Shown in pieces: positions 8,395 through 24,795 of a stretch of 64,000 nucleotides of DNA. Source of the stretch: Elusimicrobiota bacterium (GTDB taxonomy: Bacteria > Elusimicrobiota > Elusimicrobia > UBA1565). Below the pieces are notes generated by a model, which saw only the letters and a program-made list of their open reading frames with translations, searched no databases and had not been told where the DNA came from. How positions within the stretch are numbered: the first letter of the stretch is position 1; every line of letters begins with the position of its first letter. The position numbers and the translations under genes are program-made. The stretch lies in contig JBDRPD010000053.1 in NCBI GenBank assembly GCA_043827405.1, positions 130,893 through 194,892 on the forward strand. Direction: 5' to 3'.

Positions 8395-10175
8395 GACGTC
8401 AGCGCGGGATCATGGGCGCCCGAGAGATACTTGAACCAGACATCGCCGTAGGAGCCGGTCGAGCCGTCGGCGCGCGTGAACTCGGCGCCGTCCCGGGAGC
8501 TCAAGCTGTTGCCGCGCCCATCGAAGTTGCTGACCCGCGTCGTCGCCTTATTGGACAGCGTGAGCGAGGCGATGCCCGCCTCCGCCAGCGTCACCGCCGG
8601 GGCGTTCAGGCTGCCGAGCTTGGCCCGCAGGCCGTAGCGCCGTCCCAGCGCCGCCAGCTCCTCCGCCCCGAGCCGGCCGGAGTCGAAAGCGGCTCGCGTG
8701 ATAACGCCCTCGTCCGCGGCGCGTTCCACCAGCACCGCCAGCGAGGCGAAGCCGTCGCGATAGCCCGCTTCCCCGCCGGCCGCCGTGAGATCGGTGAGGT
8801 CGCCGAAAAGCTCCTTGCCGTTTTCACCGGCGATCCCGTCGCCGTCGGCGTCGAAGACCAGGACCGCGTCCCCCGCGGCGATATCGCTCAGCAAATCGGG
8901 GCGGCCGTCGGCGTCCAGATCGAAGCGGACGTCCCGGGAGCTGGTGAGCACCCCGTCGCCGTCCAGGTCGAGCACCAGCGGCGAAAGCTCCTGGACTTCC
9001 TTGATCTTCATGGGCTTGGTGGAGCCGTCCGCCATGGTCAGCTCGACCAGGTCCCGGCCCAGCGGCCGCACGTTCTCGAGCCGCTCGATGCCTTTCTTCA
9101 GATCGGTGTACAAGCCGAAAACCATCGACTTGCTGCGCCGGCCGAAGCGGTCGTCCTTAAAACGCCGAAACGACAGCAGCGCGTCCGGATTCGAACCGCT
9201 GCTGCCTTCCGCAAAGAGCATATAGGTAGACAGGCGCGGCAGCGGCCGGCCCTCCTTGCGCTTCTCCCGCAGCAGGGACAAGCTCACGTCCGGCTGCGTC
9301 CAGATGGCACTGCGCGAGCCCCCCTGATTCGGCCGCATATGCTCCAGCCGCATCATCATCATGAAGGTCGTCCAATGATCAAACAAGGTGTCCCAGACCG
9401 GGCGCGGCGCGGACACCAGCACGGCGCGATTCGCGCCGCGCGGCATGCGCGAACCGGCCGGGAATACCGGCGGGGGACGGCGCATCGGCACCACGAAGCT
9501 CACGCTTGAGCCCCGCGGCTTGGCCGCCTGAACCGGCGCCTGCGGCTTCTCGTCAAATCCCAGGAGCCCGGAGAGCGCCCGGGTATGTCCGGTGGGAATC
9601 GGCACCGGCATAATGGTCACGGCTTCCGGCTTAATGAAGCCGATGACTTCGGTCAGGCCGGAGATACCGGAAACCGTGGCGCAAATACCCTCCCAGACGT
9701 CGCCGGCGAAACGCTTGAGCAAAGTCAGCTCCGGCAGCCGCGGCAGGGAGAGGGCGGGAGCGCGCAGCCCCGAGAGCTTCCGCTCGACCGCTCCTTTATA
9801 TATGGACCAGTTCCGCGCCGGACGGCTCAGATAAGCCGCGATGCGTCGGCCATAAACCTGCTTATAGACGGCCCAGTTCTGCGCCGGACGGCTCAAGTAT
9901 TCTGCGCCGGTGATCCTTCCGGCGGCCAGACGGCTCGCGGCCGCCCGGCCGAGGCCGGCGAGCATCGACTTCTCGCCCAGGCGATAGGCCTTGCCGGCTC
10001 CGAAGTCGCGGGCGCGCTGCGGCGGGAGATAGGGAACGGGATTGCCGGGCTGTAAAGCGGGGGGCCGAAGCAGGGAGGGAGGGAGGATGGGCGCCAACTG
10101 AGCCGCACCGATCTCGGTGGAAAGAAGCGCGAGAACGACAAAACCAGAGAAGAGCTTCTTTAACTCTCGGCGCAT
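8391..10175 (-). CDS. secreted protein with C-terminal DxDxDG Ca2+-binding module (as in RTX-associated proteins)
   Basis: SPLVLDLDGDG...FDLDADG...FDADGDG...ELFGD...DGFASLA...DVWF; signal peptide; internal YLSRPA.NW..YK repeat. Confidence 0.7.
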   Translation of the reverse strand: MRRELKKLFSGFVVLALLSTEIGAAQLAPILPPSLLRPPALQPGNPVPYLPPQRARDFGAGKAYRLGEKSMLAGLGRAAASRLAAGRITGAEYLSRPAQNWAVYKQVYGRRIAAYLSRPARNWSIYKGAVERKLSGLRAPALSLPRLPELTLLKRFAGDVWEGICATVSGISGLTEVIGFIKPEAVTIMPVPIPTGHTRALSGLLGFDEKPQAPVQAAKPRGSSVSFVVPMRRPPPVFPAGSRMPRGANRAVLVSAPRPVWDTLFDHWTTFMMMMRLEHMRPNQGGSRSAIWTQPDVSLSLLREKRKEGRPLPRLSTYMLFAEGSSGSNPDALLSFRRFKDDRFGRRSKSMVFGLYTDLKKGIERLENVRPLGRDLVELTMADGSTKPMKIKEVQELSPLVLDLDGDGVLTSSRDVRFDLDADGRPDLLSDIAAGDAVLVFDADGDGIAGENGKELFGDLTDLTAAGGEAGYRDGFASLAVLVERAADEGVITRAAFDSGRLGAEELAALGRRYGLRAKLGSLNAPAVTLAEAGIASLTLSNKATTRVSNFDGRGNSLSSRDGAEFTRADGSTGSYGDVWFKYLSGAHDPALTS

Positions 10176-10260
10176 CACTGCCTCGGCGTTGCGACGCTAT
10201 CAGTCTAGCCCCGGGGTGTTACAAAGCGATTGCGCCAAGGTAAATTTGTATTCTTGATTT

Positions 10261-11697
10261 ATGCCGAAATTTTCAGGATCGCGTCCGCCGGCGGTGGCGG
10301 GACGCTTCTACCCCGGCGATCCCGGCAAGCTCAGGACCGAAGTCGACGGCATGCTCGATGCCGCGCCGGACCCCGTCCCCGACGACAACGCGGTCGGCGG
10401 CGTCTCCCCGCATGCCGGCTACGCTTTTTCGGGCCGCCTCGCGGCGCGCGTCTGCAAAGCGCTCAAGCACAAGCGGCCCAAGACCATAGTGCTGCTCGGC
10501 ACGGCGCATCACGAGGAGGTCGGCGGCCTCGCCCTGCCGGATACCGCCTCCTTCGCGACCCCGCTGGGCGAGGTCCCGGTCGATACCGGGATGGCGGAGG
10601 CCCTGCTGGCCGCCCACCCGGAAGTCAAAATCTCCCCCGCCGCCCATGCGCGCGAGCATTCACTTGAGGTCCAGCTCCCCTTTCTCCAACGCGCCCATGA
10701 AGGCGCCCATATCCTGCCGCTGCTCACCGGAGTCAAAAACCGGGGCTCCGCGGAGGAGCTCGGCCGGGAGCTCGGCCGGCTCATTAAGGAAAGAGACGCT
10801 TTACTGATCGTAGCCACCGACCTTTCGCATTTCCCCTCCGATTCCGGAGCGCGGCGCAGCGACCTCGCCTTGCTGGCGGCGCTGGAAAAAATGGATGCGG
10901 ATTTCCTCTGGGACGCCGATCGCGCCCTAATGCGTCTGGACATCCCGCAGCTGCACTGCACCGCCTGCGGCCTCGGCGCCGCGGCCGTCGGAATCACGGC
11001 CTGCCTGGAGCTGGACGCCGGCGTCTGCGAGGTCCTGCAGTACGCCAATTCCTATGACATCTCCGGCGACGCCGAACGGGTCGTGGGCTACGGCGCCGCG
11101 CTGTTTAAGAAGGGCGCGCGGCCGGACGGCCCCTTCTTCGGCCTGGGCGAGCAGGAAAAGTCGGCGCTCCTCAAGCTGGCGCGCGCGGCCCTCGCTGAAT
11201 ACCTGCGCACGGGAAAAGAGCCGGCGCCGCGCGCTTTCGACCTGCCCCTGCTCAATCTGCCCGGGGCGGCTTTCGTAACCTGGACCGAACGTTCGGCCTC
11301 CGCCGAACGCGAGCTGCGCGGCTGCGTGGGAACGACCCTGCGCGACCGGACGATCGGCAACTGCGTCGCCCATTTCGCCGTCCGCAGCGCCGTCTCCGAC
11401 ACGCGCTTTACTCCCGTCGCCGCGGCGGACCTGCCCGCGCTGCATGCCGAGGTCTCGGTGCTCTCACCGTCCCGGCCATCCACCGCCGAGGCCGTCCGCC
11501 CCGGCCAGGGCGTGGTCTTCGAGCTCGGCCGCGCCCGCGGGCTGTTTCTGCCCCTGATGTGGGAGCGCTACCCGGACAAGGAAAAGTTCATGAACGTCCT
11601 CGCCGGCTCCAAGGCCGGCGCCCGGGAAGATGCCTGGAGAGATCCCGCGGCCAAGCTCTGGACCTTCGAAGCGGAGGCGTTCGGCGAAGAAGAATGA
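10261..11697 (+). CDS. amrB: AmmeMemoRadiSam protein B-protein A fusion (MEMO1 + AMMECR1 domains)
   Basis: RPPAVAGRFYP, PHAGY.FSG, EHSLEVQLPFLQ, DLSH and VVGY (Memo); AAFVT...LRGCVG...DTRF...EVSVLS (AMMECR1). Confidence 0.92.
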   Translation: MPKFSGSRPPAVAGRFYPGDPGKLRTEVDGMLDAAPDPVPDDNAVGGVSPHAGYAFSGRLAARVCKALKHKRPKTIVLLGTAHHEEVGGLALPDTASFATPLGEVPVDTGMAEALLAAHPEVKISPAAHAREHSLEVQLPFLQRAHEGAHILPLLTGVKNRGSAEELGRELGRLIKERDALLIVATDLSHFPSDSGARRSDLALLAALEKMDADFLWDADRALMRLDIPQLHCTACGLGAAAVGITACLELDAGVCEVLQYANSYDISGDAERVVGYGAALFKKGARPDGPFFGLGEQEKSALLKLARAALAEYLRTGKEPAPRAFDLPLLNLPGAAFVTWTERSASAERELRGCVGTTLRDRTIGNCVAHFAVRSAVSDTRFTPVAAADLPALHAEVSVLSPSRPSTAEAVRPGQGVVFELGRARGLFLPLMWERYPDKEKFMNVLAGSKAGAREDAWRDPAAKLWTFEAEAFGEEE

Positions 11698-12767
11698 CGG
11701 CCGACGCCTCTTTCCCGACCAAATACTGGCACCGTCTGCCCGACGACCGCGTGCAGTGCGACGTCTGCCCGCGCGCCTGCAAGCTGGCCGAGGGCCGGCA
11801 CGGCCTATGCTTCGTGCGCAAGCGCGAGCACGGCGCCGTGGTGCTGACCACTTACGGCCGCTCCAGCGGCTTCTGCATCGATCCCATCGAGAAGAAGCCG
11901 CTCAACCACTTCCTGCCCGGCACGCCGGTCCTCTCCTTCGGCACCGCCGGCTGCAACCTGGCCTGCCGCTTCTGCCAAAACTGGAATATCAGCAAGTCCC
12001 GCGAGCACGACACCCTCGCCGCACAGGCTTCTCCCGAACGCATCGCCCGCGCCGCCCAAGAGCACGGCTGTTCCGGCGTCGCCTTCACCTACAACGATCC
12101 GGTGATCTTCCTCGAATACGCCGTCGATACCGCCGCCGCCTGCCATAAGCTCGGCGTCCGCACGATCGCCGTCACCGCGGGCTACATCACGCCCCTGGCC
12201 CGCGGCGAATTCTACCGGAATATGGACGCGGCCAACGTGGACCTCAAGGCCTTCAGCGAGAGCTTCTACGCCAAGCACTGCTCCGGGCGGCTGGCCGATA
12301 TTCTGGACACTCTGGTCTACATCAAAAAAGAAACGAAGGTCTGGCTGGAGCTCACCACTCTCCTCATTCCGGGCCTCAACGACGACGCGCGGGAGATCGA
12401 CGCCATGACGCGCTGGATCGCCGCCGAGCTCGGCGCCGACGTGCCGCTCCACTTCACCGCTTTTCATCCCGACTGGAAGCTGACCGACCGGCCGCGCACC
12501 CCGCTCGCTACCCTTTCCCGCTCCCGCGACATCGGCAAAAAGAACGGGCTCCTCCACGTCTATACCGGCAACGTCAGCGACCCGGAGGGCGAGAGCACCT
12601 ACTGCGGCGGCTGCGGGAAACCGCTCATCGGCCGCGACCGCTACCGGCTCTCCGCATGGGAACTTGACGCGAACGGAAACTGCCGCAGCTGCGGCGAGCG
12701 GCTCGCCGGCGTCTTCGCCGGGCCGCCCGGAGACTGGGGCGCGCGGCGGCAACTTATTTCCCTATGA
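11694..12767 (+). CDS. amrS: AmmeMemoRadiSam system radical SAM enzyme
   Basis: N-terminal CDVCPRAC; DPIEKKPLNHFLPG; CNLACRFCQNW (CxxxCxxC); ATGA overlap with the upstream gene. Confidence 0.95.
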   Translation: MTADASFPTKYWHRLPDDRVQCDVCPRACKLAEGRHGLCFVRKREHGAVVLTTYGRSSGFCIDPIEKKPLNHFLPGTPVLSFGTAGCNLACRFCQNWNISKSREHDTLAAQASPERIARAAQEHGCSGVAFTYNDPVIFLEYAVDTAAACHKLGVRTIAVTAGYITPLARGEFYRNMDAANVDLKAFSESFYAKHCSGRLADILDTLVYIKKETKVWLELTTLLIPGLNDDAREIDAMTRWIAAELGADVPLHFTAFHPDWKLTDRPRTPLATLSRSRDIGKKNGLLHVYTGNVSDPEGESTYCGGCGKPLIGRDRYRLSAWELDANGNCRSCGERLAGVFAGPPGDWGARRQLISL

Positions 12768-13433
12768 GCGCATGAGCTCGCGCACGTAGCGATCGGCCTC
12801 GCGCGTCGGTTTGGGCACCCGCTGGCCGTCGCAAACGGCGCGCGTCAGGCGCATCGCGCTCTTCATGTCGATCAGATGCCCGGGCGAGACATAGACCGGA
12901 CGCCGGCATTCGCCGGCGCGGAAGGCCGTCCCGATCTGTTCCCCCTGGTGCAGGAGCGGCGCGGTCGAGCCAAAACCCGAAGCGGGAGTGCGATGGGTGC
13001 CGATCAGCACCGACTTGGCCACCCCGATCGTCGGGATGCCCAGCCACAGCCCCATATGGCAGGCCAGTCCGAAACCGCGCGGATGCGCGATGCCGTGGGC
13101 GTCGAAGAAGGCGGCATCCGGCTCGCTCTTGAGCTTGCGGAAGGCCGCCAGCAGGGCCGGCGCCTCGCGGAAGCTCAACAGGCCCGGCACGTACGGGAAG
13201 TTCATGTCGGAGACGGCCCACACGCGCTCGACTTCCTTGAGCGACGGCACCGCGTAGACGACGAGCCCCGCGGTGGCCCGCATGGTCGTTAAGTCATAGC
13301 CGCAGTCGGCCCCCACCGCCAGCTTCGCCGAGACCTTGTACGGCGTAAAAATGAGCTTCTCGCGCAGCTTCAGCTGCAGCTCTTTGGCCTTGGCGGGGGT
13401 GAGGTCCCAGTCGTGCAGCTCCCTGATCTTCAT
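12762..13433 (-). CDS. nfi: endonuclease V (deoxyribonuclease V)
   Basis: FPYVPGLLSFRE, DAHGIAHPRGFGLACHMG, PTIGVAKS, PVYVSPGH and P.PTR.AD motifs. Confidence 0.95.
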   Translation of the reverse strand: MKIRELHDWDLTPAKAKELQLKLREKLIFTPYKVSAKLAVGADCGYDLTTMRATAGLVVYAVPSLKEVERVWAVSDMNFPYVPGLLSFREAPALLAAFRKLKSEPDAAFFDAHGIAHPRGFGLACHMGLWLGIPTIGVAKSVLIGTHRTPASGFGSTAPLLHQGEQIGTAFRAGECRRPVYVSPGHLIDMKSAMRLTRAVCDGQRVPKPTREADRYVRELMRS

Positions 13434-13446
13434 ACGAAACCGCCTT

Positions 13447-14559
13447 TCATCCTTTAGAGAGCTTAGCCCGCGCGACGGGAATGCGCCAGGGGATTTCAGG
13501 ACCGATCTCGGGAGCGCCCGCGAAATGGTCCGGCTCGCGACGCCGGTCCTCATTGTAGATTCGTTGGAGCTCGTCCCAGCCCATAGCCCCGCCGCCTTCC
13601 GGCGCCCGCCCGGCCGCCGCAGACGCGCGCGCCAGACAGGCCGGAATTTTTTCGGCCAAGCGCAGAATCTCCCGTTCGACCTCCTCGGCGTACGGATGCG
13701 CGGCGGCCCGGCGGACATCCGCGGCGAAACGGCGGCCGTCCGCGGAGGGAAGCCAGTCCAGCACCTCCTTGAGATGGGCCTCGGCCGCGTCGAGGAGCCG
13801 GCGGCGCTCCGGCAGGTGCACGTCCCGCCACGACCGCAGCTCGTCGAGGACGCCCTTGAGCCGCTCCTGTTCGATCCCGTGCGCGAGCATCAGATGAGAG
13901 GCGAACCAGAACCAGTGGCGGTTCTTGCTCCGCACGTACTCCAGGCTCCCGCGGCGGCGCGCGAGCTCCGCGAGCCGCGCTTCGACCGATTTTCGCGGGG
14001 TTAGGGCCTCGCCGCGGCTCAGGCTCAGGCGCCGCTGTTCGGAATCCAGAAAAAGGATCACTTGGTGGTAGGCGTCCATGCCCGTCCCGAGGTCCGCGGC
14101 CGTTTCGCCCGCCGGCACGCCTCCGAGCTCGCAGGCGGCCGCCGCGCCCACGGCCAGCGAGTAGGCCTCATTCTCCTCCAGATGCAGGAACGTCTCGATC
14201 CCCCTGCTCCGGACTTCCCGCCCAAGCAGGACGTGGCCGTAGAGCTCATGGGCCAAAGTCTCGGCCACGATCGTTCCGGTCGACCGGATGAGCCCCTCGC
14301 TGAGAAGGATGCGCGCGGGGAGCGCCCCGCTGTCCGCCCGGCCCCAGCCTCCCTTATGGGCGACATCCGAGGAAAAGGAAACGAGATAGCCGAAGTCCCG
14401 GCGCGTCTCAAGACGCGCGGCGGTCGGGCTCTTCTTGAGCGCGGAGAGGGCCCTCTCGATAACGGCGCGCTCCTCCGGCCGCCCGCGGTCCGCGATCGTC
14501 GGCGGCTCCGCGGCGCGGCAGAGGAGGGCGAGAATCGAAAGCAGCGGGAGCAGGCTCAC
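13447..14559 (-). CDS. secreted hypothetical protein with zincin-like HExxGH motif
   Basis: Signal peptide; TLAHELYGH followed by EENEAY. Confidence 0.6.
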   Translation of the reverse strand: MSLLPLLSILALLCRAAEPPTIADRGRPEERAVIERALSALKKSPTAARLETRRDFGYLVSFSSDVAHKGGWGRADSGALPARILLSEGLIRSTGTIVAETLAHELYGHVLLGREVRSRGIETFLHLEENEAYSLAVGAAAACELGGVPAGETAADLGTGMDAYHQVILFLDSEQRRLSLSRGEALTPRKSVEARLAELARRRGSLEYVRSKNRHWFWFASHLMLAHGIEQERLKGVLDELRSWRDVHLPERRRLLDAAEAHLKEVLDWLPSADGRRFAADVRRAAAHPYAEEVEREILRLAEKIPACLARASAAAGRAPEGGGAMGWDELQRIYNEDRRREPDHFAGAPEIGPEIPWRIPVARAKLSKG

Positions 14560-14617: not shown

Positions 14618-17200
14618 CTAGAAACGGATAGCGAGCTCGGCGGGCGGCGCGCCGTGGAGGTAGTCCGCCTCCAGGCGATAGGCGCCGCCGGTTTCGACGA
14701 CGCTCCAGCCCTCGGTCAGGGCGCGTCCGTCGAGACGGACCTCCTTGGGACGCGCCGGCGAGATCACGACCGCCCTGCCCCGATGCCCGGCGAAGGCCTG
14801 AAGCCGGACCCGCAGGGTCCTGTCCTTGGGATCATAGACGCTCTCGAGCAGCCGCGATCCGGCGGCGGCCAAATAGGGCGTCCGCGGCACGCCGAGGACA
14901 AGCTCGATTGTCCGCGCCGGCGCCTGGGTCTCGGGCATGACCGCCGAGGGATAGGGCTTCCCGTCGAAAAGGATCTCCGCGAGGAGGGGGCCGCCGCCGC
15001 GGATCTCGACGTCGATGGACTTGCCGCCGACCGCCAGCTCGAAGCGGGCCTTTTCGCGTCCTTCCGCCGGCCGGGGCTCAAACGAGAAGTTCCACGCGTT
15101 CTCCCGCAGGCCGAGCAGGTCATGGACCGCGTAGAGGAACCAGCCGCCCGCCCACAGGAACTGCGGCTTGTGGATGAGGCCGTATTCGGCCGGGGCGCCC
15201 TTCTTGGCGATGCGGAACTCGTACATCGCCGCATGCCCGCGCGGGCTGGCGGCGGCTCCGTCGACGGTCATGATCTTTTTCAGGAAGCGAAAGGCCTCAT
15301 CCCGCCTGCCGGCCGCGCGCAGGGCCAAAGCGTACCAGGCGTTGCCGTGCGACCAGACTCCCCCGTTCATGTAGTAGTAGGGCTCGCCCGCCTCGCCCTC
15401 CTCGAACTTGAAAAAGTCCTTGAGGGTGTGGAAGTCCATGGGCACGGCGTTGTAGACGCCGATGTCCGGATCCACCATGGTCGCGGACGCGGTACGGGCC
15501 AAGGTCTCCGTCTTTTCCCGGTCGAGCAGGCCGAAGTGGGCCGCGAGCAAAGACCCCGTGTAGAGGTGCGGGTCCTTCTTCCCGCCCAGGTTATAGTTGA
15601 TGAGATAGCCCAGCTCGCCGTCCCACAGCTTCTCGCCGAGGCCGCGCTCAAGACGGCCGGCGAGCTCCGCGTAGCGCGAAAGCTCCTCAACGCCTTGCTC
15701 GAGCGCCGAGCAGACGTAGGAAAACTCGCGCAGCGAGCGCGCCGCCAGGATCGTCATATAGGCCCGGGGACCGAAGCTCCGGCCGATGTCCCACCAGTCC
15801 GGGCGCTCGGCCCCGATAACATCGTCCTTCATGTTCACGAGCATCTGCCGCACGCTGGTCTCGAGGTACGGATAGAGCTTGCGCAGGGTTTCCAGGTCGC
15901 CGCTGTGGCGCAGGTACCTGGCCGATACCAGGACGAACCAGAAGTGGTTCCAGTTCGTGGGCGAGGCGAACTCCGTCGCGTAGCGGCCGTCCTTCCAGTA
16001 GTAGGCATGGGGGATGACATGGTCCTCTTTCGCGCGGCTGACGATGAAGAGGAGGTCCCGCTTGGCGCGGGCCGGATCGAAGCTCACGGCCCCCATGTCC
16101 GTCATCAGGGCGTCATGCGTGAAGTGGAAGTTGTACTCCGCGGGGCAGGGCATGGGGACGATCTCGCCGTCGAGATAATGGGCGTTGGCCGCCAGCATGG
16201 CCCGCGCCCAGCGCACCGAGTGGTCGACGGCCGCGTCGCCGGTCTCGGCGCCGCCGGCGGACTTCTCGAGCACGCGCCGCTCGAACACCTCCGCCTCGCG
16301 CCGGTAATTCTTCCGCAGATAGCCGACCATTTCCCCGACCTCGCCGGCGCGCGCCGCGCCGATGAGTTGGACGACGGTCATCTTCTCTCCGGGCGCGAGC
16401 CGCTTGCGGTAGACGAAGGCGGCGGCGGGCCGGCCGGGAGCGGACTTCGGCAGGTCCGCCCGCGGCAGGCCGGCCTCGCGCTTTATCCACCAGCTCTCGT
16501 CCGTGCCGGGAGCGCCGAGCTTCCCGCCGTCGGTCGCGAACGCGGCGGGAGCTTCCCCCGCGTTGGCCGCGAACAGGCGCGCGTCCCCGGCTTCGCTGTC
16601 ATCAAAGTGGACGATAAGCGTCGCCCCCCCGTCCCGCGACTCGGTCCAGGCCTTATCCTTGAGGGTGAAGCTGTGGCTGGTCTTGACCGCAGCCTCGAGC
16701 TGGGTGAAGAGCTCGAAGGTCTCGGGGGCGCCGCCGGTATTCGTCAGCTCAATCGCCGCCGCCATGCCGGGCTTGTTCTCGAAGAACCGGTACGAGATCT
16801 CTATCGCCTTCCGATCATCGCGCTTATGAAAAACGACTGAGTACGGGGTCAGCCGGTGCGCGTACGGCTCGCCCCCGATCCATTCTTTCGGCCCGTCCCC
16901 GATTTTCAGGCCCAGGGCCAGGGCGCGGCTCGCGTCGTGCGCCCAGTAGTCGGGACGCATGTCGACGCTGTTGGCCACGGGGTAGTAGAAGCTCAGGCGC
17001 GTCGGCAGCGGGCTGCCGTTGTACATGACGACGCCCATATAGGGACCGCCCACCTCGATGAGGGCGGCGGCGGCTTTTTCGGCGTCCACCTCCCGCACCA
17101 GGCGCGCATAGGGCTCCTGGCAGCCGCCGGGTGAGGGCGACAGCAGATTGGCGCAGAGCGCGCCCGCCAGCAGACCGGTCCGCGTCCGTTGCATAAGCAT
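14618..17200 (-). CDS. secreted (alpha/alpha)6-barrel glycoside hydrolase-like protein
   Basis: YLRHSGDLETLRKLYPYL, PDWWD, LWDGELGY, YMNGGVWSHGNAWY and QFLWAGG resemble six-hairpin glycosidases (glycogen-debranching-like). Family not assignable by eye. Confidence 0.65.
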   Translation of the reverse strand: MLMQRTRTGLLAGALCANLLSPSPGGCQEPYARLVREVDAEKAAAALIEVGGPYMGVVMYNGSPLPTRLSFYYPVANSVDMRPDYWAHDASRALALGLKIGDGPKEWIGGEPYAHRLTPYSVVFHKRDDRKAIEISYRFFENKPGMAAAIELTNTGGAPETFELFTQLEAAVKTSHSFTLKDKAWTESRDGGATLIVHFDDSEAGDARLFAANAGEAPAAFATDGGKLGAPGTDESWWIKREAGLPRADLPKSAPGRPAAAFVYRKRLAPGEKMTVVQLIGAARAGEVGEMVGYLRKNYRREAEVFERRVLEKSAGGAETGDAAVDHSVRWARAMLAANAHYLDGEIVPMPCPAEYNFHFTHDALMTDMGAVSFDPARAKRDLLFIVSRAKEDHVIPHAYYWKDGRYATEFASPTNWNHFWFVLVSARYLRHSGDLETLRKLYPYLETSVRQMLVNMKDDVIGAERPDWWDIGRSFGPRAYMTILAARSLREFSYVCSALEQGVEELSRYAELAGRLERGLGEKLWDGELGYLINYNLGGKKDPHLYTGSLLAAHFGLLDREKTETLARTASATMVDPDIGVYNAVPMDFHTLKDFFKFEEGEAGEPYYYMNGGVWSHGNAWYALALRAAGRRDEAFRFLKKIMTVDGAAASPRGHAAMYEFRIAKKGAPAEYGLIHKPQFLWAGGWFLYAVHDLLGLRENAWNFSFEPRPAEGREKARFELAVGGKSIDVEIRGGGPLLAEILFDGKPYPSAVMPETQAPARTIELVLGVPRTPYLAAAGSRLLESVYDPKDRTLRVRLQAFAGHRGRAVVISPARPKEVRLDGRALTEGWSVVETGGAYRLEADYLHGAPPAELAIRF

Positions 17201-17262: not shown

Positions 17263-20200
17263 TTAGCCGTCGCCGCGGCGGACGCGCATGGTGCGCAGCG
17301 GCGCGCCGGCGAGGTCCTTGAGGACCCGGCGGCTGATGCCGCGATGGCTGATCTTGGCGTCCTTGAGCTCGACCAGCGCCCCCTCGACGATGTCCTCGAC
17401 GTTCCTGCCGTCGGCGCGCAGGGCAACCAAGGCCGCCAGGAGCGGCCGCAGGCTGGGGTTGTGGCCGCGCACTTCGACGTAAGCCCCCACGTAAATACTG
17501 CCGTCCTTGGTCCTCAGCGCCGCTCCCGCCGGGCTGTCCTTGGAGTAAGAACGGTTGGCGGCGCGGAAGGCCGCGTTGATCAGGTCGGCGCCGGCGCCGG
17601 AGGGCTTACGGATCATCGCCAAATTATTATCGCGCGCCGTCAGCAAAGAGCCGTCGTCGCCGTAGGGCATGGGGTAGAGCTCGGCCAGAGTCGCCGGCTT
17701 CTCCCGGCTTTCCACGATAATCTTCATGCTGCCGCGAGAGGCCAGCTCATTGAGAAAAGCCCGGCAATGCCCGCAGGGATTGGCCGTGACCGCGAGAGCC
17801 TTGAGCCCGGTCTCGCCATGCTCCAAAGCGTTGATGACCACCGCCTGCTCGGCGTGGATATTCACCTCGATGCCGCCGGCGTAGGATTCGATATTGCCGC
17901 CCAGGTAGACGGCGCCGCTCTCGCCCAAGCCCACGGCGCCCACCGAACGCCCGGATACCGACGGCATCGCCTTCTTGGCCGCGATGGGCCGCAAAGCGCT
18001 GATGAGCTCTTCCGGCGACACATCCAAAGCTTCCGTCAGCTCCGCCGCCTTCGCGGGGCTGAGATAAGAGGGATTGCCTTCCTCCTCAAGCCGCGCTGCC
18101 AGATCGGCCGTCAGGTAGGCCTCCGAGAGGATCAGCTTGTCGCGCGCCACCGATTGGCCGATCATGCCGGTGAACAGCTCGGCGAGCCCGGCATTCCTGC
18201 CATGCTCCGCCCAGTCCTCGGCGAGAAGCTCGGCGAAAGACTCGGCGAGGTTCGCCACCTCGTCCTTGCTCGTCATCTCGATGAAGTAGTCGGCGTGGTG
18301 GCGCAGGGGCATGATATGCTTCTTCTCGTTCTCCAGCACCCGCTCCCAGCCCTTGAGGTTGTCCTCGATGGAGCGGCCGCGCTCATACTTGTCGCGCTTG
18401 AGCCGGCGGGCGAGACGGGCGGCCGTCGGCGCCGACAGGAAGACGTTAAGGTTGGTATGTCCCACTCCGGCCTTGAGCAAGGTCTTGTGGGCGGCGAAGA
18501 TCGAATCGACGATGAGCACATCCTCCTTGCCCAGCTGCATATAGTCGCCGGTCTTGAATTCGGTGGTCATCTTTTCCATATTGCGGTAAGGCATTTCCAC
18601 CCGCCGGCCTTCGAGAAGCGCCTTGATATCGGCGGCGGCGCGGTCGAGATACAGCGCGTCCGGCCGGTCGAAATCGGGGCTGCCGTCGGCCAGCCGCGGC
18701 ACGTCGTTGGGATTCTTGAAATAGGAGTCCACCGGGAAGACCTTAATGCGCTCGCCCATGGTCTTGGCCAAACGCTTGGCCAAGGTGGATTTGCCGGCCG
18801 CCGTGGGCGCCTGCAGATAGATCAGGCTGCGGCCGGGGAGCGCCTCGGCCATGGTCACGAAATGATCCAGCCGCTGCTCCAGATCGCCGTCGGTGAACTT
18901 CGCATAATCGATGTCTTTAAAGATCCCGCTCACCGTCCGGCGCGCTTCCGGCAGATAGCGCGCCTTGCGGTACTTGATCAGCGCGCTCGCGGCGCGGGCG
19001 GCCAGCGGCGCGCCCGCCTTTTTGAGAAACGCGCCGACGCCTTCAACCGCGCGAATTCCGGGGCCGAGGACGGCATTGGTGGGGCCCGGGAAGTAGTACT
19101 GAGCGAGAACGGTCGAGGAGGCCGTGATAGCGACCACCGCATTAAGCACCCAGGACATGTCGCCGAGCATGACGGCGGCGTAAAGATGGAGGAGGCTGCC
19201 CAGCGCGACCAGCCCGGGCCATAGCGGGGAGAGCCCCTCAGGCCGGCGGCCGTCTTCCTTGTATAGGTGGTAGTAGCTCTTGATCTGCGGCCAGTTGATC
19301 AGCCAGCAGAGATAGAGCGCCGCGGTCAAAGCCAAAGACAGCCAGGAAGACAGCGGCATGAAGGCCTGCAGCGCGATAAAGGGCAGAGGCAGCAGCGCCG
19401 CCGCCATGGCCAGCCCGGTGGCGATAAGCACCTTCCTGCTGCGCTGGGCATTGTTGATCTGGCCGATAAGAAGGATGCTCTCAAGCACCCCCGCCAAGTT
19501 GGCGCCTATCCACCACGGGTTGGCGGCCTGGCCGATGGAAACGACCGAGAACATGACGGCGGCGGCGAACCAGATCAGCGGAGTGGCGACGGGCACGTCC
19601 ATCACGGCTTTGCGGCCCTCTTTAAAATTTTTATAAATCTGCGGAACGCCGATAACGCTCAGGACGATGCTGCCCGCCCCGGCGACCAGGCCGACATGCG
19701 CCGCCAGCGCCGGAAGGGCGGCGACGATTCCCGCGCCCGCCGCCAGCGCCGCGGCCCAGCGGACCGCCGGCTTCTGCCATAAGCGCGCCAGAGCCGAAGG
19801 CGCTTTGGCCTCGGCGGCGCTGAAATCCGCATTTTCTACCGCCGGCTTGTTCTGGTAATCATCAGCGGCTTGGCCTTGCGTCTTATGCAGGAGGACACGA
19901 GCGGCGCGGCCGCGGTGGAGCGCTCCGGCCTGGGCGGAAGTTTTGCTGCCGGCCGTGCCCTGCGTGGCGATCAGCTCGCTGCCGCGCAGCGCGGAGAAGA
20001 GCCTGTCCGCCGCCTCCTTCGAAACCTCGCCGCCGGCGGTCGCCTTAAATCCCTTGAGCTGGAGCGCCTTGCCGACGCGCCGGGTGATCGCCCGCAAGCC
20101 TTTGCCGCCGGCCTCATCTTTGGCCGCGACCGCGGCGGTCTCGGCGCTATTCTCGCCGGCGACGGTCCCGGTACGGACCAGCGGGATGACCCGGCCTGGG

Positions 20201-20523
20201 TGCCGGACATGGCCGGTCTCGACGGCAATCGTCCGCTGATGATCCGAGAGCGAAATGACCTTATTGCCGCCGCTAACCGCCGGCAGCGCGCCGACGTTCA
20301 CATTGGGCAGTACCGCGGAGAGCTTGTAGCCGTCGGCGGCGAAAACGGACGGATTGCTGAAATTGAGCGCCTGCACGACCGGGACCGGCGCGGCCTGGAC
20401 CGGCGAGGTCTTGACCTGCACCTGAGCCTGGACGACGACCCCGGCGATCGCCTCGCATGGCGCGCCGAAAAAGGTCCAGCCGAATTGCAGCAGGGCCAGG
20501 AGTCCGGCGAGCGACCGTTTCAT
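17263..20523 (-). CDS. multidomain fusion: PQ-loop/SWEET-like transporter + uridine kinase + homodimeric-type cytidine deaminase
   Basis: VPQIYKN and WPQIKSY PQ motifs within a multi-TM block; APTAAGKST, VDSYF, DFDRPDAL and RRLKRD..ERG (uridine kinase); HAEQ...PCGHCR plus a second HNPSL.PL half (Cdd). Alternative starts at 20529 and 20553. Confidence 0.88.
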   Translation of the reverse strand: MKRSLAGLLALLQFGWTFFGAPCEAIAGVVVQAQVQVKTSPVQAAPVPVVQALNFSNPSVFAADGYKLSAVLPNVNVGALPAVSGGNKVISLSDHQRTIAVETGHVRHPGRVIPLVRTGTVAGENSAETAAVAAKDEAGGKGLRAITRRVGKALQLKGFKATAGGEVSKEAADRLFSALRGSELIATQGTAGSKTSAQAGALHRGRAARVLLHKTQGQAADDYQNKPAVENADFSAAEAKAPSALARLWQKPAVRWAAALAAGAGIVAALPALAAHVGLVAGAGSIVLSVIGVPQIYKNFKEGRKAVMDVPVATPLIWFAAAVMFSVVSIGQAANPWWIGANLAGVLESILLIGQINNAQRSRKVLIATGLAMAAALLPLPFIALQAFMPLSSWLSLALTAALYLCWLINWPQIKSYYHLYKEDGRRPEGLSPLWPGLVALGSLLHLYAAVMLGDMSWVLNAVVAITASSTVLAQYYFPGPTNAVLGPGIRAVEGVGAFLKKAGAPLAARAASALIKYRKARYLPEARRTVSGIFKDIDYAKFTDGDLEQRLDHFVTMAEALPGRSLIYLQAPTAAGKSTLAKRLAKTMGERIKVFPVDSYFKNPNDVPRLADGSPDFDRPDALYLDRAAADIKALLEGRRVEMPYRNMEKMTTEFKTGDYMQLGKEDVLIVDSIFAAHKTLLKAGVGHTNLNVFLSAPTAARLARRLKRDKYERGRSIEDNLKGWERVLENEKKHIMPLRHHADYFIEMTSKDEVANLAESFAELLAEDWAEHGRNAGLAELFTGMIGQSVARDKLILSEAYLTADLAARLEEEGNPSYLSPAKAAELTEALDVSPEELISALRPIAAKKAMPSVSGRSVGAVGLGESGAVYLGGNIESYAGGIEVNIHAEQAVVINALEHGETGLKALAVTANPCGHCRAFLNELASRGSMKIIVESREKPATLAELYPMPYGDDGSLLTARDNNLAMIRKPSGAGADLINAAFRAANRSYSKDSPAGAALRTKDGSIYVGAYVEVRGHNPSLRPLLAALVALRADGRNVEDIVEGALVELKDAKISHRGISRRVLKDLAGAPLRTMRVRRGDG

Positions 20524-20565
20524 CCTCATCCTTATAAATATAGTGCGCTTCACGGCCGGCGGCAG

Positions 20566-20625
20566 GTGTCATCTGGGGCAGATTTCGCCGGCCAAACGCA
20601 CTACTTATTGCGGGCCCAAGGGCCT
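20566..20625. promoter_or_regulatory. GGGNC-N4-GNCCC-like sites with 23-bp period
   Basis: gggcccaagggcct (20612), degenerate cggccaaacgcact (20589) and gtgtcatctggggc (20566), upstream of the fusion gene. Confidence 0.4.
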
Positions 20626-22108
20626 ATTGGGCTCGATCGATGAGCCGGGGCAGCTCTTCTTCGAGGCGCGCGGAGGCTTCTTCGCGGTCGGCGCCGACGG
20701 CGATCACGTCGAACTTGCCGAAATCGAGCAGGCAGCCGACGTTGTAGAAGATATAGTGCCCCTGGCCGCTGCGCACGTCGTAAGCCGACGCGCCGAAGAT
20801 CTTGAGAAAATCAGCGAAGCGGATGCCTTTGAGACGGGAGTCCACATAGTCGCGGGCCCGGTAGCAGGGCAGCCGGCCCCGGCCGAAGACGCGCTCGCAC
20901 AAAGCCATCGGTATCGAGGTCCCGCCCCAGCGGCCGTTGCATTCGACGAACATCGGCTTGGCGCTCGGGATATCCTCGCCGCAGAGCAGGAAATCGAAGG
21001 AGCAGCGCCCGACATAGCCGAGCGCCTGCCATACCCGGGCGACCTCGCGGCTCATATCCGCCATTTTTCGCTGCAATTTCTCGGGCAGCGCCGAGGGCAT
21101 GCTGCCCTGAAAGACCCCGGCCTTGCCGGTCAAAATCTGCTCATAGACCCCATCCACGCGGGGCGGTCCTTCCTCGGCCGGCGGGACCCACAGCTGAGTG
21201 GAGGGCGACTGCAGCACATCGCTGCGCCATTGGGTGAGCAGAATCTCCACCCGCCCATCCCAGGCATGGTTCTTGGCGAACACCGCGATGCGCGAGGCGG
21301 TCTCATCGACCGTCCCGGCGCCCAGCTTCTTGGCGTTGAATACCTGATTGCCCATTCCGGAAGCATAGTTGGCGACCTTGAGCGCGACCGCAGGGAAGCG
21401 GCCGGCGAAGTCCTGCGCCGCGCGCGCCAGCGGCTGCAGATCATTGGAAGAAACCGTCCGGCATACCGATTCCGGACCGAGAACCACCGTGGCCGCCTGA
21501 GTGAGCAGGCCCTTGTGGTTGGCGGCATAGGTCGCGGGCGGAAACGGAGCCAGCACCCGCACTTTCGTCTTGACGCGCTCCCTGAGCTCGAGCGCCAGCT
21601 CCCAGACCGCGCGCGAACCCATATAGGGATGGACCAGCAGCCCTCCGTTCTCATCGGCAAGACGCACCAGTCCCCGCATGATCAGCGGATCTTTCAGGCA
21701 GGTTCCGGCGACGCACAGCGGATCGGCGCCGGGCACCGCGGCCCGCAGATAGGCCGGCTCGCCGATACCCAGCATATCCTTGTTGTACGACTCGTAGCCG
21801 TCGATCGGACGCTGCGTCGAGACGCAGACATCGCCGTCGCCGGCCCGGGTTCGGGAGCGGAGCTGATACCATTCGACGCCCTGCACCCCGTCGAGAAATG
21901 GGATGTCGCTGAAGTCCTCCAGCACCAGCGCCGGCAGCTTCCCGTTGCCGCCCCGCGCCTGCAGGCCGCGCCAGGGAGCGGGGTCCTCGCCGGCACGGGG
22001 ATGCTCGCGCAGCAGGGCCGCCGCGCGCTCAACGGCGCGCCGGCTTTCCTCGTCGTTTCTCTGGTTTTCTGCGCGCACAACCTGCAAAGAATAGCGCACT
22101 ATTTGCAT
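20624..22108 (-). CDS. ATP-grasp protein (preATP-grasp / PGM1-like peptide ligase family)
   Basis: HPYMG..AVWELA, ANHKG, LK....ASGMGN, SPSTQL, EQIL, GRCSFDFL and VECNGRWGGTS motifs. Confidence 0.75.
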   Translation of the reverse strand: MQIVRYSLQVVRAENQRNDEESRRAVERAAALLREHPRAGEDPAPWRGLQARGGNGKLPALVLEDFSDIPFLDGVQGVEWYQLRSRTRAGDGDVCVSTQRPIDGYESYNKDMLGIGEPAYLRAAVPGADPLCVAGTCLKDPLIMRGLVRLADENGGLLVHPYMGSRAVWELALELRERVKTKVRVLAPFPPATYAANHKGLLTQAATVVLGPESVCRTVSSNDLQPLARAAQDFAGRFPAVALKVANYASGMGNQVFNAKKLGAGTVDETASRIAVFAKNHAWDGRVEILLTQWRSDVLQSPSTQLWVPPAEEGPPRVDGVYEQILTGKAGVFQGSMPSALPEKLQRKMADMSREVARVWQALGYVGRCSFDFLLCGEDIPSAKPMFVECNGRWGGTSIPMALCERVFGRGRLPCYRARDYVDSRLKGIRFADFLKIFGASAYDVRSGQGHYIFYNVGCLLDFGKFDVIAVGADREEASARLEEELPRLIDRAQ

Positions 22109-22164
22109 ATGGCGCCAGGGTTTTTTGCTTGACTCATTTACTGAATGGCATAATACCTTCCGTC

Positions 22165-24795
22165 GTGAAGCGCCATCCATTAACCGGAAAATATTTCACC
22201 CCCGCCCTGGCGGTGCTGCTGCTCGCGGCCTGCGCCCGGACGGAAGGCCCCGGTCACGCTTATCAAAAAGCCGCCGCCCGGCAGCAGAAGTACTTCTACC
22301 TCGATCCGCTGACCCCGTTGTTCAGCCGGGAGCGCGGGCCGGACGGCTCCTGGTTTTTCACCGCGCGCCGCGCCATGAGCCCGCCGCACCCGCGTTTCTC
22401 CGCGCGCAAGCCCCCGGGCGTCAAAAGGGTCTTTGTTCTCGGCGGCTCGGTCGTCCAGCTCTTCGATGAAGAAGCGCTCAAGGCGGCGCTGGAAGCGGCC
22501 GGCCCCGGCGAGCGCTACGAGATCATCGACTGCGGCCTGAGCGCCTACGACAGCCGCCGCGACGCGCTCATCCTGCGCGAAGTCCTCAACTACCAGCCGG
22601 ACCTCATCGTGCTCATGAGCGGCGTCAACGAGGGTGAGCGCATCGGTCCCGCCGTCCCGCACCGCGGCCGGTGGCTGCTGCGCATGACCCTGCGCGGGCT
22701 GCTGCTGCGGCATCCCGTCCTGGCCTACCGGCTGGCGCGCTCCGCCGTCGAACCCACGCCGCCGCCCGCCCGCATCGCCGCCGACTTCGCAGCCAACGTA
22801 CGCTCCATGATACGGCGCGCCAAGGCGCGCAAGGTTCCTATCGTCCTCACCGCCCTGCCCTGGAACCTGCGCGATATGCCGCCGCGCGGCGCCCTCCCGC
22901 TCAAGGACCGGCGCTTCTTCGACGCCTGGCTCGCCTTCGAAGAAGAAGACTACGCTGCGGCGGAGAAGCTGTTCCGCCAAGCCCTGCCGGCCTTCGCCAA
23001 GGACCCGGCGCTGAGCAAAGAGCTTATCTTCGCCAAATACTATCTGGCGCGCGCGCTCGACAAGCGCGGCCGGCATGCCGCGGCCCGGGACGCCTATCAG
23101 GCGGCGCTGGAGCTCGCCGTCCCGCCTATGCCGGCGATCAATCGCGCGCTCAAGCGCCTGAGCGATGAGGAGGACGTCCCCCTCGCCGACCTCGCGGAGG
23201 CCTTTGCCCGCGTCAGCCCGCACGGCCTCACCGGCTCGGACCTGTTCGAAGACGACATGCACTGGGACCGCTTCCTCGATCCGCTCGTCGCCGAAGTCAT
23301 CGTCCGGGCCCTGCGCCCGGAGCGCCCATATCCGGATTTCATGCGCTACCGCGCGCTGGCCAAGAAAGCCGCCGCCCGCAACGAGAAAGCCTGGATCGTC
23401 TTCCGCTTCCGGGCCTGGGGAGCGGGCTTGGGCGGCGGCGGACTTTCGGAGCGGATCGTGGCGCTGATGGACGTGGTCCATGCCGCGCATCCCGAGCTCC
23501 TGGCGAATATTCTCGAGCTCAAGCAGTGGCTGCGCGGAAAGCTGGCGGGCAATATCTGGGACAGCGAGGCGGCCGCCAATCTGGACTCGTGGTGGCCGGT
23601 CATGCTCGGCCATATCGGTGAGTCCTATCTCCGGCGGGGGCAAAGCCTGCGCGCGCTGGGATATTTCGCCGAGGCCCTGCGTCTCAATCCGAAGCTGACC
23701 GCTGTTCGCCTGCGGCGCGCCGCGGCGCTGGCCCGCTCAGGTCGCAAAAAAGAGGCCGCGCTGGCGCTGGACCTGCTCGCCCGCGAGCACGGCGATATGC
23801 CGGAGATCGGCTACTACCGCGCCGCCCTGCCGGGCATCAAGACGCGCAAGGGAAAGCCCGCCGCCAAGCCGTCCGCAAAGATGCCCGCCTTGGCGCTCGA
23901 AGGCAGCCGTTTTCTCGGCGCCCACCAGCAGCTGATGGCCGACGCCTCCGGCGCCGCCCGGCAGGGCGACGACGCGCGGGCCCTCGACCTGCTCCAGCGG
24001 CTGGAAAAGATGGAGCCGGCCGCGGAGCTGCGCCTGGAGATGGCGCGTCTCTACCTGAACCTGCGCCAAGGCGACGCGGCACGGCATGCGGTCGACCGCG
24101 CGATGTCCTCTCCCCTGGATTACGAGCGGACCATCCGCGCCGCCCGCCTTTACGGAGACATGAAGGAACATGTGCGCGCCGCGGCCGCCTGGAAGCGGGC
24201 CGCCGAGTCGGCTCCCGCCGACGCCGAACCATGGTTCCAGCAGGCCCGTCATCTGGAAGAAGCGCGCGTCTTTATAGAGCTCCCGGCGGTGCTCGAACGA
24301 GCGGCGGTTCTGGCCAAGCAGCCGCAGCGCCGCCTGCGCGCCGCCGAAAAGCTCGCCGACCTGGGCAAGGAGGAGCTCGCTCTCAAGTTCGCCGATCAGG
24401 TGCGCGACGCGGCGCCCGAAGCCGATCTCCGCATGCGGGTCGGCTGGCTGTATCAGCGCCTGCGGAAATATCCGCGCTGCGTTTCCGTATTCTCCCGCCT
24501 CACCCGGAATCCCAAATTCGCCGCCGCGGCGCGGCGCGACAAGGGCGTCTGCGAGTACCTCAACGGCGCTCCCGAGCAAGCCGTCAAGGACCTCGAGGCC
24601 GCGCTCGCGCTCGAGCCCGAACTCCTGTCCGCCTACCTCAGCGCGGGCACTATTCTCGAATCGCTCAAGCGTCCGCAGGACGCTTTGGACCTCTATGAGC
24701 GGGGGCTTAAAATCCCGGCCAAGAAGGACCATGAGGAACTGCGCCGCAAGCTCACCGAAAGCCGCGACCGCGTACGAGGCGCGTCAATTCGCTAA
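22165..24795 (+). CDS. lipoprotein with SGNH/GDSL-like domain and TPR repeats
   Basis: Lipobox LLLAAC; RVFVLGGS, PDLIVLMSGVNE and FEDDMHW; multiple TPR-like helices. GTG start at 22165 is inferred. Confidence 0.75.
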   Translation: MKRHPLTGKYFTPALAVLLLAACARTEGPGHAYQKAAARQQKYFYLDPLTPLFSRERGPDGSWFFTARRAMSPPHPRFSARKPPGVKRVFVLGGSVVQLFDEEALKAALEAAGPGERYEIIDCGLSAYDSRRDALILREVLNYQPDLIVLMSGVNEGERIGPAVPHRGRWLLRMTLRGLLLRHPVLAYRLARSAVEPTPPPARIAADFAANVRSMIRRAKARKVPIVLTALPWNLRDMPPRGALPLKDRRFFDAWLAFEEEDYAAAEKLFRQALPAFAKDPALSKELIFAKYYLARALDKRGRHAAARDAYQAALELAVPPMPAINRALKRLSDEEDVPLADLAEAFARVSPHGLTGSDLFEDDMHWDRFLDPLVAEVIVRALRPERPYPDFMRYRALAKKAAARNEKAWIVFRFRAWGAGLGGGGLSERIVALMDVVHAAHPELLANILELKQWLRGKLAGNIWDSEAAANLDSWWPVMLGHIGESYLRRGQSLRALGYFAEALRLNPKLTAVRLRRAAALARSGRKKEAALALDLLAREHGDMPEIGYYRAALPGIKTRKGKPAAKPSAKMPALALEGSRFLGAHQQLMADASGAARQGDDARALDLLQRLEKMEPAAELRLEMARLYLNLRQGDAARHAVDRAMSSPLDYERTIRAARLYGDMKEHVRAAAAWKRAAESAPADAEPWFQQARHLEEARVFIELPAVLERAAVLAKQPQRRLRAAEKLADLGKEELALKFADQVRDAAPEADLRMRVGWLYQRLRKYPRCVSVFSRLTRNPKFAAAARRDKGVCEYLNGAPEQAVKDLEAALALEPELLSAYLSAGTILESLKRPQDALDLYERGLKIPAKKDHEELRRKLTESRDRVRGASIR

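Follow-up and report, generated by a model that had tools for sequence, protein, structure and literature searches.

A PQ-loop carrier fused to a uridine-cytidine-kinase-fold kinase and a cytidine deaminase in Elusimicrobiota: an apparently undescribed variant of carrier-kinase coupling

Introduction

SWEETs are passive facilitators, and in the SemiSWEETs the residues Trp50 and Asn66 line the pocket (PMC4309421); bacterial SWEETs with seven transmembrane (TM) helices are also in print (PMC5742349). Among Pnu carriers, PnuT combines facilitated diffusion with trapping, and pnu genes often lie beside kinase genes (PMC5749112). The Thermus thermophilus kinase ttCK uses uridine only with His or Gln at residue 93, and its Y93M variant keeps its cytidine activity, with kcat/KM values of 48 for uridine and 7700 for cytidine (PMC5614712, Table 3). 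In a tetrameric cytidine deaminase (CDA), the substrate is contacted by Tyr24, Ala46, and Tyr48, and very weak activity on cytidine monophosphate (CMP) appears in some mutants of the pocket (PMC9897663). Here we analyze a 64,000-nucleotide stretch of DNA from an Elusimicrobiota bacterium (assembly GCA_043827405.1, contig JBDRPD010000053.1, positions 130,893 to 194,892), referred to as the window, which carries on its minus strand a gene joining a SWEET/PQ-loop carrier, a kinase, and a cytidine deaminase.

The gene had been singled out from the letters of the window alone (the original prediction) as a pyrimidine salvage unit that imports a nucleoside, deaminates it to uridine, and phosphorylates this to uridine monophosphate (UMP). 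Because bacterial seven-helix SWEETs are already known, the duplicated carrier, which that prediction had considered unusual for bacteria, is not new by itself. We find that the fusion is real, and that its product, whatever its location, probably couples the transport of a nucleoside to enzymes that act on nucleosides. We also propose, as a tentative reading whose chances fall somewhat short of even, that the protein is an export-tagged cassette of carrier and enzymes whose working membrane lies outside the cytoplasm of the producer.

Results

A single gene encodes carrier, kinase, and deaminase

The gene lies in a single uninterrupted minus-strand frame (17263-20553). Its ATG at 20523, which has AAGGA 5 nt before it, coincides with the start of the database record P0002, whose residue numbering is used throughout. 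The product of 1086 amino acids (aa) agrees with the original prediction of one polypeptide of about 1090 aa. The order of Pfam domains is PQ-loop repeat, PRK/UK (E 1.9e-15), and both cytidine-deaminase lobes (E 2.1e-11 and 2.5e-23). The features of the gene are as follows.

17263..20523, minus strand: whole gene, 1086 aa; an in-frame GTG at 20553 would extend it by 10 aa
20440..20523, minus strand: signal-peptide-like N-terminus, aa 1-28, with basic n-region, hydrophobic core, and small-residue cleavage-like end
19789..20439, minus strand: low-complexity leader rich in Ala, Pro, Ser, and Val, aa 29-245, in which a short helix near aa 163-181 is conserved; the leader is shared by a class of 59 genes of this genome
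19720..19770, minus strand: extra N-terminal membrane helix (TM0), aa 252-268, with a basic flank on its N-terminal side, from the AlphaFold model and family alignment
19093..19716, minus strand: predicted 7-helix SWEET/PQ-loop carrier, aa 270-477, with PQ motifs at 19639-19644 and 19285-19290
18133..18849, minus strand: P-loop kinase of the uridine-cytidine-kinase fold, aa 559-797; intact are Walker A, D599, D619, D673, and the R706/R707/R710/D711/R715/G716 motif, whereas base-pocket positions diverge (M652)
17263..18108, minus strand: two-lobed homodimer-type cytidine deaminase, aa 806-1086, with H890, E892, C917, C920, N877, and E879 intact and with R859 and R1019-G-H1021 replacing the aromatic residue and AAF

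The junctions were compared with a separate assembly from a second groundwater study, in which gap-free contigs of approximately 97-98% identity cover 17287-17945, 17917-18911, and 18959-20268. The second of these, 995 bases long, spans the kinase-deaminase junction with 29 differences and no gap; the carrier-kinase linker at 18912-18958 has no bridging contig in that study. Another sequencing run, X1, spans the stretch with a single contig and may itself be the source of this DNA; runs X3-X7, which contain small shares, were left out of the comparison. Many genomes have an intact carrier-kinase junction, and the same three-part architecture, with a homodimer-type Cdd, recurs in P0029 and P0030 (46% and 43% identical to P0002), each three-part protein being found on one contig only. 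Because of the bridging contig and the shared architecture of P0029 and P0030, an artefact is very unlikely; the fusion gene is real and encodes a single polypeptide. The assembly error that the original prediction had itself considered is thus largely refuted.

Neither a promoter nor a minus-strand terminator was matched for the gene, and no RNA dataset was among those listed with the sequence. AvcD-like kinase-deaminase systems, which are reportedly anti-phage, served as the comparison class for a test with PADLOC defense-system profiles, which matched 0 families for P0002, P0029, P0030, and P0031.

The membrane block is modeled as a SWEET/PQ-loop fold with one additional helix

The AlphaFold model of the membrane block (23 aligned rows; pLDDT 91, pTM 0.82) has one N-terminal helix followed by a 3+1+3 arrangement. 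The best Foldseek matches were all cystinosin, SWEET (AtSWEET13, OsSWEET2b), and KDEL receptor, and VIA-align gave Z scores of 14.3-16.1 over 175-208 residues (root-mean-square deviation 3.5-5.0) to the top PQ-loop-fold entries, the next entry being at Z 7.6. Carriers were matched only by such fold searches; when the membrane profile was compared by sequence with solved structures, no carrier came up. The Pfam PQ-loop match (E 3e-4) scored 20.9 bits on the protein, narrowly missing the 22-bit cut-off, and 24.9 bits, above it, in the genome search. Matches in the ESM Atlas (0.83-0.85) fell in PQ-loop/MtN3 clusters and are taken as leads only. For the Pnu family there was no Pfam match and no structure among the listed fold matches, the PQ-loop matches being clearly the best. 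On these models the block is a SWEET/PQ-loop fold plus one N-terminal helix. The two PQ motifs and 3+1+3 layout of the original prediction are borne out; its extra helix is also present, and the place that it had left unspecified is the N-terminal end.

Conservation within the 23 rows centers on the PQ motifs (P294, P412, and Q413 in 23/23; Q295 in 21/23) and on a set of polar and aromatic residues: W318, W338, N342, and W458 never vary, 21 rows have H446 and N461, and S443 also belongs to the set. Repeat 1 holds the pair W318/N342 and repeat 2 holds H446 and N461, a tentative equivalence judged by helix position. By analogy with the established families, the carrier would be a passive facilitator.

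Basic residues are distributed unequally between the two faces. Over the 23 rows, the mean number of Lys plus Arg is 1.9, 3.7, 2.6, and 3.6 in the N-terminal flank and PQ-side loops, and 0.0, 0.2, 0.1, and 0.7 in the remaining loops. By the positive-inside rule, basic loops mark the cytoplasmic face. Taken with the eight helices, this pattern predicts that leader, kinase, and deaminase all lie on one face, that of the basic PQ loops.

The kinase looks active and the deaminase divergent

The closest solved structure to the kinase is the Thermus thermophilus uridine-cytidine kinase (UCK; E 3.5e-24), with nicotinamide riboside kinase a weaker match (E 2e-8). The domain shares G577, K578, D599, D619, R706, R707, R710, D711, R715, and G716 with two canonical Udk rows, and we take the roles of these residues from their equivalents in human UCK2. 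Since it has Walker A, D599, D619, and the Arg motif in common with canonical Udk, the kinase looks active on a riboside. Its base pocket is different. At the position that determines uridine use (ttCK 93, human UCK2 117) the protein has Met652, and the 15 family rows have His in none and Gln in one, the hairpin alignment here being uncertain due to a 3-residue insertion; the genome's own leaderless Udk has His at this site. The Tyr88 site is His in 11 of the 15 rows, and the Arg152 site is Arg only in the query. Both NCBIfam uridine-kinase models gave less than half of their cut-offs (89 versus 180 bits and 85 versus 220 bits). On this evidence we would not class the domain as a standard Udk, and its want of the uridine-permitting His suggests, without being firm, that cytidine is a likelier substrate than uridine. 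Thus the predicted uridine kinase stands as to fold and catalytic residues and fails as to base pocket and model cut-offs, and Met652, subject to the same uncertainty of the hairpin, speaks against deamination to uridine before phosphorylation.

The deaminase retains the zinc ligands, the catalytic Glu, the N-x-E ribose motif, and the second lobe. It passes the NCBIfam cytidine deaminase model PRK09027 (187 versus 153 bits) and does not pass TIGR01355 (177 versus 275). In an alignment that took in 24 of 45 matches, the aromatic residue before the first strand is Arg or Lys in 3/3 fused homodimer-type copies and Phe or Tyr in 30/30 other rows. The pocket loop ENAAF has become EVRGH, and the APYS motif is lost. 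The corresponding residues of the tetrameric enzyme are Tyr24, Ala46, and Tyr48, and we presume here that its pocket residues map onto the second lobe of the dimer enzyme. Such a pocket may accept a 5'-phosphate, as in CMP, and this would agree with a kinase that prefers cytidine and works before the deaminase; the deaminase may also have lost its activity. The assignment to the E. coli type holds for the fold, the catalytic and zinc residues, and PRK09027, and the altered aromatic residue and ENAAF loop make the domain, as judged from its residues, a divergent Cdd. Two close homodimer-type relatives, P0062 and P0063, have long low-complexity N-terminal extensions and no signal-like start.

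Fusion partners point to a nucleoside cargo

A census of 52 representative matches to the carrier family gave 15 carrier-kinase proteins (two partial, two with other tails), three with a homodimer-type Cdd behind the kinase, one with a Cys-type two-lobed Cdd in that place, and one carrier-nucleoside monophosphate (NMP) kinase. A HAD domain precedes the carrier in nine, an exonuclease and HAD in two, and an exonuclease in one; 19 were the carrier alone or a fragment, and one was unmatched. The carrier-kinase-NMP kinase arrangement is found in P0004-6 and L029, and the Cys-type deaminase also in L027 and L028. HAD and kinase share a chain in 0/52 representatives, and the HAD partner matches the ISN1 5'-nucleotidase weakly and under the cut-off (E 4e-5 and 1.6e-3). 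P0041, P0045, P0048, P0018, P0035, and P0046 supply further architectures, which have either a DEDDh exonuclease, with or without HAD, ahead of the carrier or a CTP_transf_1, serine-hydrolase (PF00144), or unassigned tail behind it.

The two deaminase types that fill the same slot are phylogenetically far apart. In quick trees, the P0029 core nests among Cys-type carriers, apart from P0002 and P0030. One clade for the three homodimer-type-bearing cores was rejected (approximately unbiased (AU) test, p 1.1e-5; 22 of 32 rows), and for one clade of all six deaminase-bearing cores rejection was not reached (AU p 0.072). Because the two types are unrelated, and without relying on the core tree, it appears that a deaminase was placed in the carrier-kinase slot at least twice.

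Most of the partners (kinase, NMP kinase, the two deaminase types, HAD phosphatase, and exonuclease) are enzymes that act on nucleic acids or nucleosides, which supports a nucleoside-type cargo, presumably a pyrimidine ribonucleoside. The original prediction of a nucleoside substrate for a PQ-loop transporter is favored to this extent.

The leader marks an apparently exported class of proteins

N-termini similar to the signal-like start are present in 16 listed family members, signal peptides having been judged by eye and with a simple n/h/c filter. The original prediction had noticed this start and passed over its significance, which is that it marks a class of 59 proteins among the 2681 predicted genes of this genome. 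The class was collected by a composition filter and an iterated profile, a profile from the carrier family alone having matched almost no other gene; the number 59 is approximate, since the gene calls (77% of the genome) were home-made. A full-length AlphaFold model from three sequences was poor (pLDDT 45, pTM 0.29), with the leader as coil, and was not used for domain packing.

Cysteine makes up 0.038% of the leader class, compared to 0.65% and 1.16% in two other sets, a depletion of approximately 30-fold relative to genes with no signal-like start (1.16%). Nine of the 15 cysteines in 33 carrier-family proteins are zinc ligands. By analogy, loss of cysteine points to transit through an oxidizing space, and the class is apparently exported. 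A Pfam scan of 52 leader-class proteins matched 29, of which 10 are ATP-dependent or typically cytoplasmic and eight are inner-membrane transporters or channels (two in both groups), the rest being mostly hydrolases. The cargo includes PPK2, glycogen synthase, two Clp ATPases, LonB, MoxR, RNB, ATP-grasp, and five MFS proteins. Individual parts of the fusion also occur behind the leader: L016:5309-6811 joins the leader to a kinase and lacks the membrane block, whereas L013:6212-7636 joins it to a homodimer-type Cdd that is sister to the fused deaminases.

The genome has a leaderless salvage set of its own, consisting of NupC, Udk, a tetrameric Cdd, Upp, and PyrF. NupC is present in 39/41 related genomes, including all 23 that carry the family, and this genome, which is 98% complete, yielded no NupG-type carrier. 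It has three loci each for secretin and PilC/GspF, and two weak matches resembling TLC/NTT nucleotide translocases (L097 and L098; G000:C39 near 18900-19500 and C50 near 212700).

One further leader-bearing gene, L033:56-3844 (G000:C1:48955-52743), joins an alpha-amylase to a second PQ-like membrane domain with a weak carrier-profile match (E 8e-4 for Pfam PQ-loop); cyanobacterial relatives carry PF28566. We take this membrane domain to resemble the plant maltose exporter MEX1. The arrangement suggests a sugar counterpart of the carrier-enzyme design.

Distribution and gene neighborhoods

The carrier profile matched 23/41 related genomes. Among 301 genomes drawn across the phylum it matched 14, and all 14 belong to the window's own order. 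Loci in the species collection were labeled Elusimicrobia or Elusimicrobiota in 22 of 24 cases and 'bacterium' in two, and the sequence occurs mainly in two groundwater metagenomes. The family is lineage-specific, its matches in these genomes all falling in one order.

Neighborhoods differ among the loci. In two genomes of one genus (L026:3-3457 and L032:2-4512), and in no others scanned, a carrier-kinase gene is followed directly by a canonical udk and an adenosine deaminase. The downstream udk of L032 has Tyr at the uridine-determining position, like the cytidine-only ttCK. The carrier-kinase gene L025:5041-7311 of genome G022 has a frameshift within the kinase and a short stretch missing, and is either a pseudogene or an assembly error.

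In the window, the gene is flanked by co-oriented genes for a signal-bearing MGH1/GH94-like glycoside hydrolase (14618-17200, minus strand; 63 nt downstream) and a pre-ATP-grasp/BesA-like protein (20624-22180, minus strand; upstream), and neither neighbor was present in the other loci scanned. Elsewhere, a Memo-AMMECR1 fusion, a radical SAM gene, and an endonuclease V gene are adjacent to one another (10261-13718), and an open reading frame (ORF) at 8391-10178 on the minus strand encodes a signal-bearing protein of 595 aa with a Pro/Arg-rich N-terminal half, repeated DxDGDG-like motifs, and no Pfam match.

Discussion

A proposed cassette outside the producer's cytoplasm

The signal-like n/h/c pattern of the N-terminus conflicts with the N-in topology given by the charge pattern. 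If the signal is cleaved, the leader would end up outside, and the number of helices, eight, would place both enzymes there too. Because that face has nevertheless a cytoplasm-like charge pattern, and because the kinase needs ATP, we propose that it lies in the cytoplasm of another cell or in a comparable space. The signal peptide would send the leader, kinase, and deaminase face out of the producer's cytoplasm, and the protein would work in a membrane bounding another ATP-containing space, most simply that of a host or prey cell. There the passive eight-helix SWEET/PQ-loop carrier would admit cargo to be converted at the pore, the kinase using ATP to phosphorylate a ribonucleoside and the zinc deaminase turning a cytosine compound into the uracil compound. 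The order may be cytidine to CMP, with deamination afterwards. By default the direction is proposed to be uptake into that space, with trapping as nucleotide. In favor of this reading we count the fold, the fusion partners, the sidedness, the leader class with its loss of cysteine, the leaderless salvage set, and the secretin and PilC/GspF loci.

Several points weigh against this proposal. We know of no precedent for the intact passage of a membrane protein of eight helices through Sec, and it is hard to see what would be gained by trapping nucleosides in another cell. Of the 52 scanned leader-class proteins, 23 have no Pfam match at 1e-6, and many of the class are hydrolases of the usual exported kind. 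A leaderless paralogue turned up for only 9/16 cargo queries, so a 'second copy' is not general. The membrane helices of the class are barely less hydrophobic than others (median peak 2.23 versus 2.40, p 0.0015; top-5 mean 2.02 versus 2.12, p 0.054; 17 versus 206 proteins). Salvage genes occur in only 2/16 neighborhoods scanned (62 of 133 candidate ORFs). Some partners are not nucleoside enzymes, such as the CTP_transf_1 tail of P0018 and the serine-hydrolase (PF00144) tail of P0048, and P0035 and P0046 carry unassigned tails.

The strongest rival is an import-and-trap unit in the producer's own inner membrane, N-in/C-in, with the leader uncleaved or ignored, the nucleoside entering by facilitated diffusion and held by phosphorylation, and the order of steps open; we rate its chance as not far below that of the cassette. 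The positive-inside pattern gives just this topology, with cytoplasmic enzymes, forward kinase chemistry fits uptake, the Pnu carriers offer a parallel, and udk and adenosine deaminase are neighbors in one genus. Left unexplained would be the conserved signal-like N-terminus, the cysteine depletion, and the soluble leader-kinase protein L016, and the cell would be adding to a NupC present in every carrier-bearing genome and to its own Udk, Cdd, and Upp. The unit envisaged by the original prediction holds as a single polypeptide of the expected fold with its enzymes on the PQ-loop face; its order of steps is not supported, and its site is challenged by the leader and by the leaderless salvage set.

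It is unlikely that the cargo is something other than cytidine or uridine, either another riboside (a modified nucleoside or nicotinamide riboside) or a sugar whose carrier merely shares the export tag, uncoupled from the enzymes. The divergent base pocket of the kinase (never His at the Tyr93/His117 site), its low scores with both udk models, and the weaker nicotinamide riboside kinase match would allow this, as would the retained Trp(TM2)/Asn(TM3) pair W318/N342, which resembles W50/N66 of SemiSWEET (PMC4309421), and the many domains that this lineage strings behind the leader. Opposed to it are the attachment of a cytidine-deaminase-fold domain at least twice from unrelated clades, the action of 5/7 nameable partner types on nucleic acids, nucleotides, or nucleosides, and the T. 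thermophilus UCK as closest solved kinase.

We give slight weight, likewise, to a view in which transporter-enzyme cassettes, secreted into the inner membrane of another cell, would empty that cell of RNA and nucleotides. Forms with exonuclease, HAD, and carrier would degrade RNA as far as nucleosides and release them; in the three-part protein the kinase, unable to use uridine, might run in reverse from CMP to cytidine, deamination would render this irreversible, and uridine would exit by the carrier and enter the producer through its own NupC. HAD and kinase would then be two solutions for the same step, and leader, amylase, and PQ-like carrier would do the same for glycogen. The weakest link is the reverse kinase step, which is uphill. 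An assembly chimera or read-through of separate genes, which could appeal only to the unbridged linker and to the single contig behind each three-part protein, is so improbable in view of the junction data and P0029/P0030 that we set it aside.

Comparison with known systems

The protein resembles four known groups in part. The carrier is like SWEET, PQ-loop, cystinosin, and KDEL-receptor structures (PDB 5ctg, 5xpd, 7zk1, 8dyp, 8apy) and SemiSWEETs (4qnc) in its 3+1+3 layout, two PQ motifs, repeat-1 Trp(TM2)/Asn(TM3) pair, and Asn in TM7. It differs in the extra N-terminal helix, His446 instead of Trp in TM6, an identity of 7-17%, the fused enzymes, and the export-type leader. The logic of facilitator plus kinase, and a 7-TM core with an optional extra N-terminal helix, are shared with the Pnu carriers that work with a trapping kinase (PnuC-NadR, PnuT-thiamine kinase); here, in contrast, PQ motifs and the SWEET/PQ-loop fold are found, and a UCK-fold kinase is covalently fused, whereas Pnu carrier and kinase genes are described as co-located (PMC5749112). 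The kinase resembles uridine-cytidine kinases (T. thermophilus 3asy/3w8r, human UCK2) in Walker A, the catalytic and ribose-binding Asp residues, and the invariant Arg motif, but the His/Gln determinant is absent, the Glu of the EG motif is Asp-Ser, there are extra C-terminal helices, and scores fall below the NCBIfam cut-offs. The deaminase has the two lobes, His-Cys-Cys zinc site, catalytic Glu, and N-x-E motif of homodimeric Cdd (E. coli 1af2, Klebsiella 6k63), differing in the Arg/Lys in place of the aromatic residue, the EVRGH loop, and the missing APYS motif.

In the literature searched, which was mostly open-access, we found no paper describing a carrier-kinase-deaminase fusion, and no description of a nucleoside cargo for the SWEET/PQ-loop fold. 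The fusion is thus apparently undescribed, a new variant of carrier-kinase coupling, and it offers both a candidate nucleoside cargo for this fold and a carrier hard-wired to its trapping kinase, the latter likewise not found there.

For the leader, the nearest parallel is with the giant proteins of Omnitrophota, in which cytoplasmic enzymes are predicted to lie outside the cell and for which predation is proposed; the same source names Elusimicrobiota as rich in very large genes, and its authors allow for mispredicted topology (bioRxiv 10.1101/2023.11.21.568195). Both combine a signal with enzymes that are normally cytoplasmic and are predicted to lie outside, but the giants have thousands to tens of thousands of residues and wall-degrading domains, and the text seen mentions no PQ-loop or nucleoside module in them. 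The present protein can serve as a probe for the site of action of the cytoplasmic enzymes and transporters that this uncultured order makes with an export tag and without cysteine: its sidedness is fixed by the carrier, so that its topology would distinguish salvage in the producer's own cell from delivery into another.

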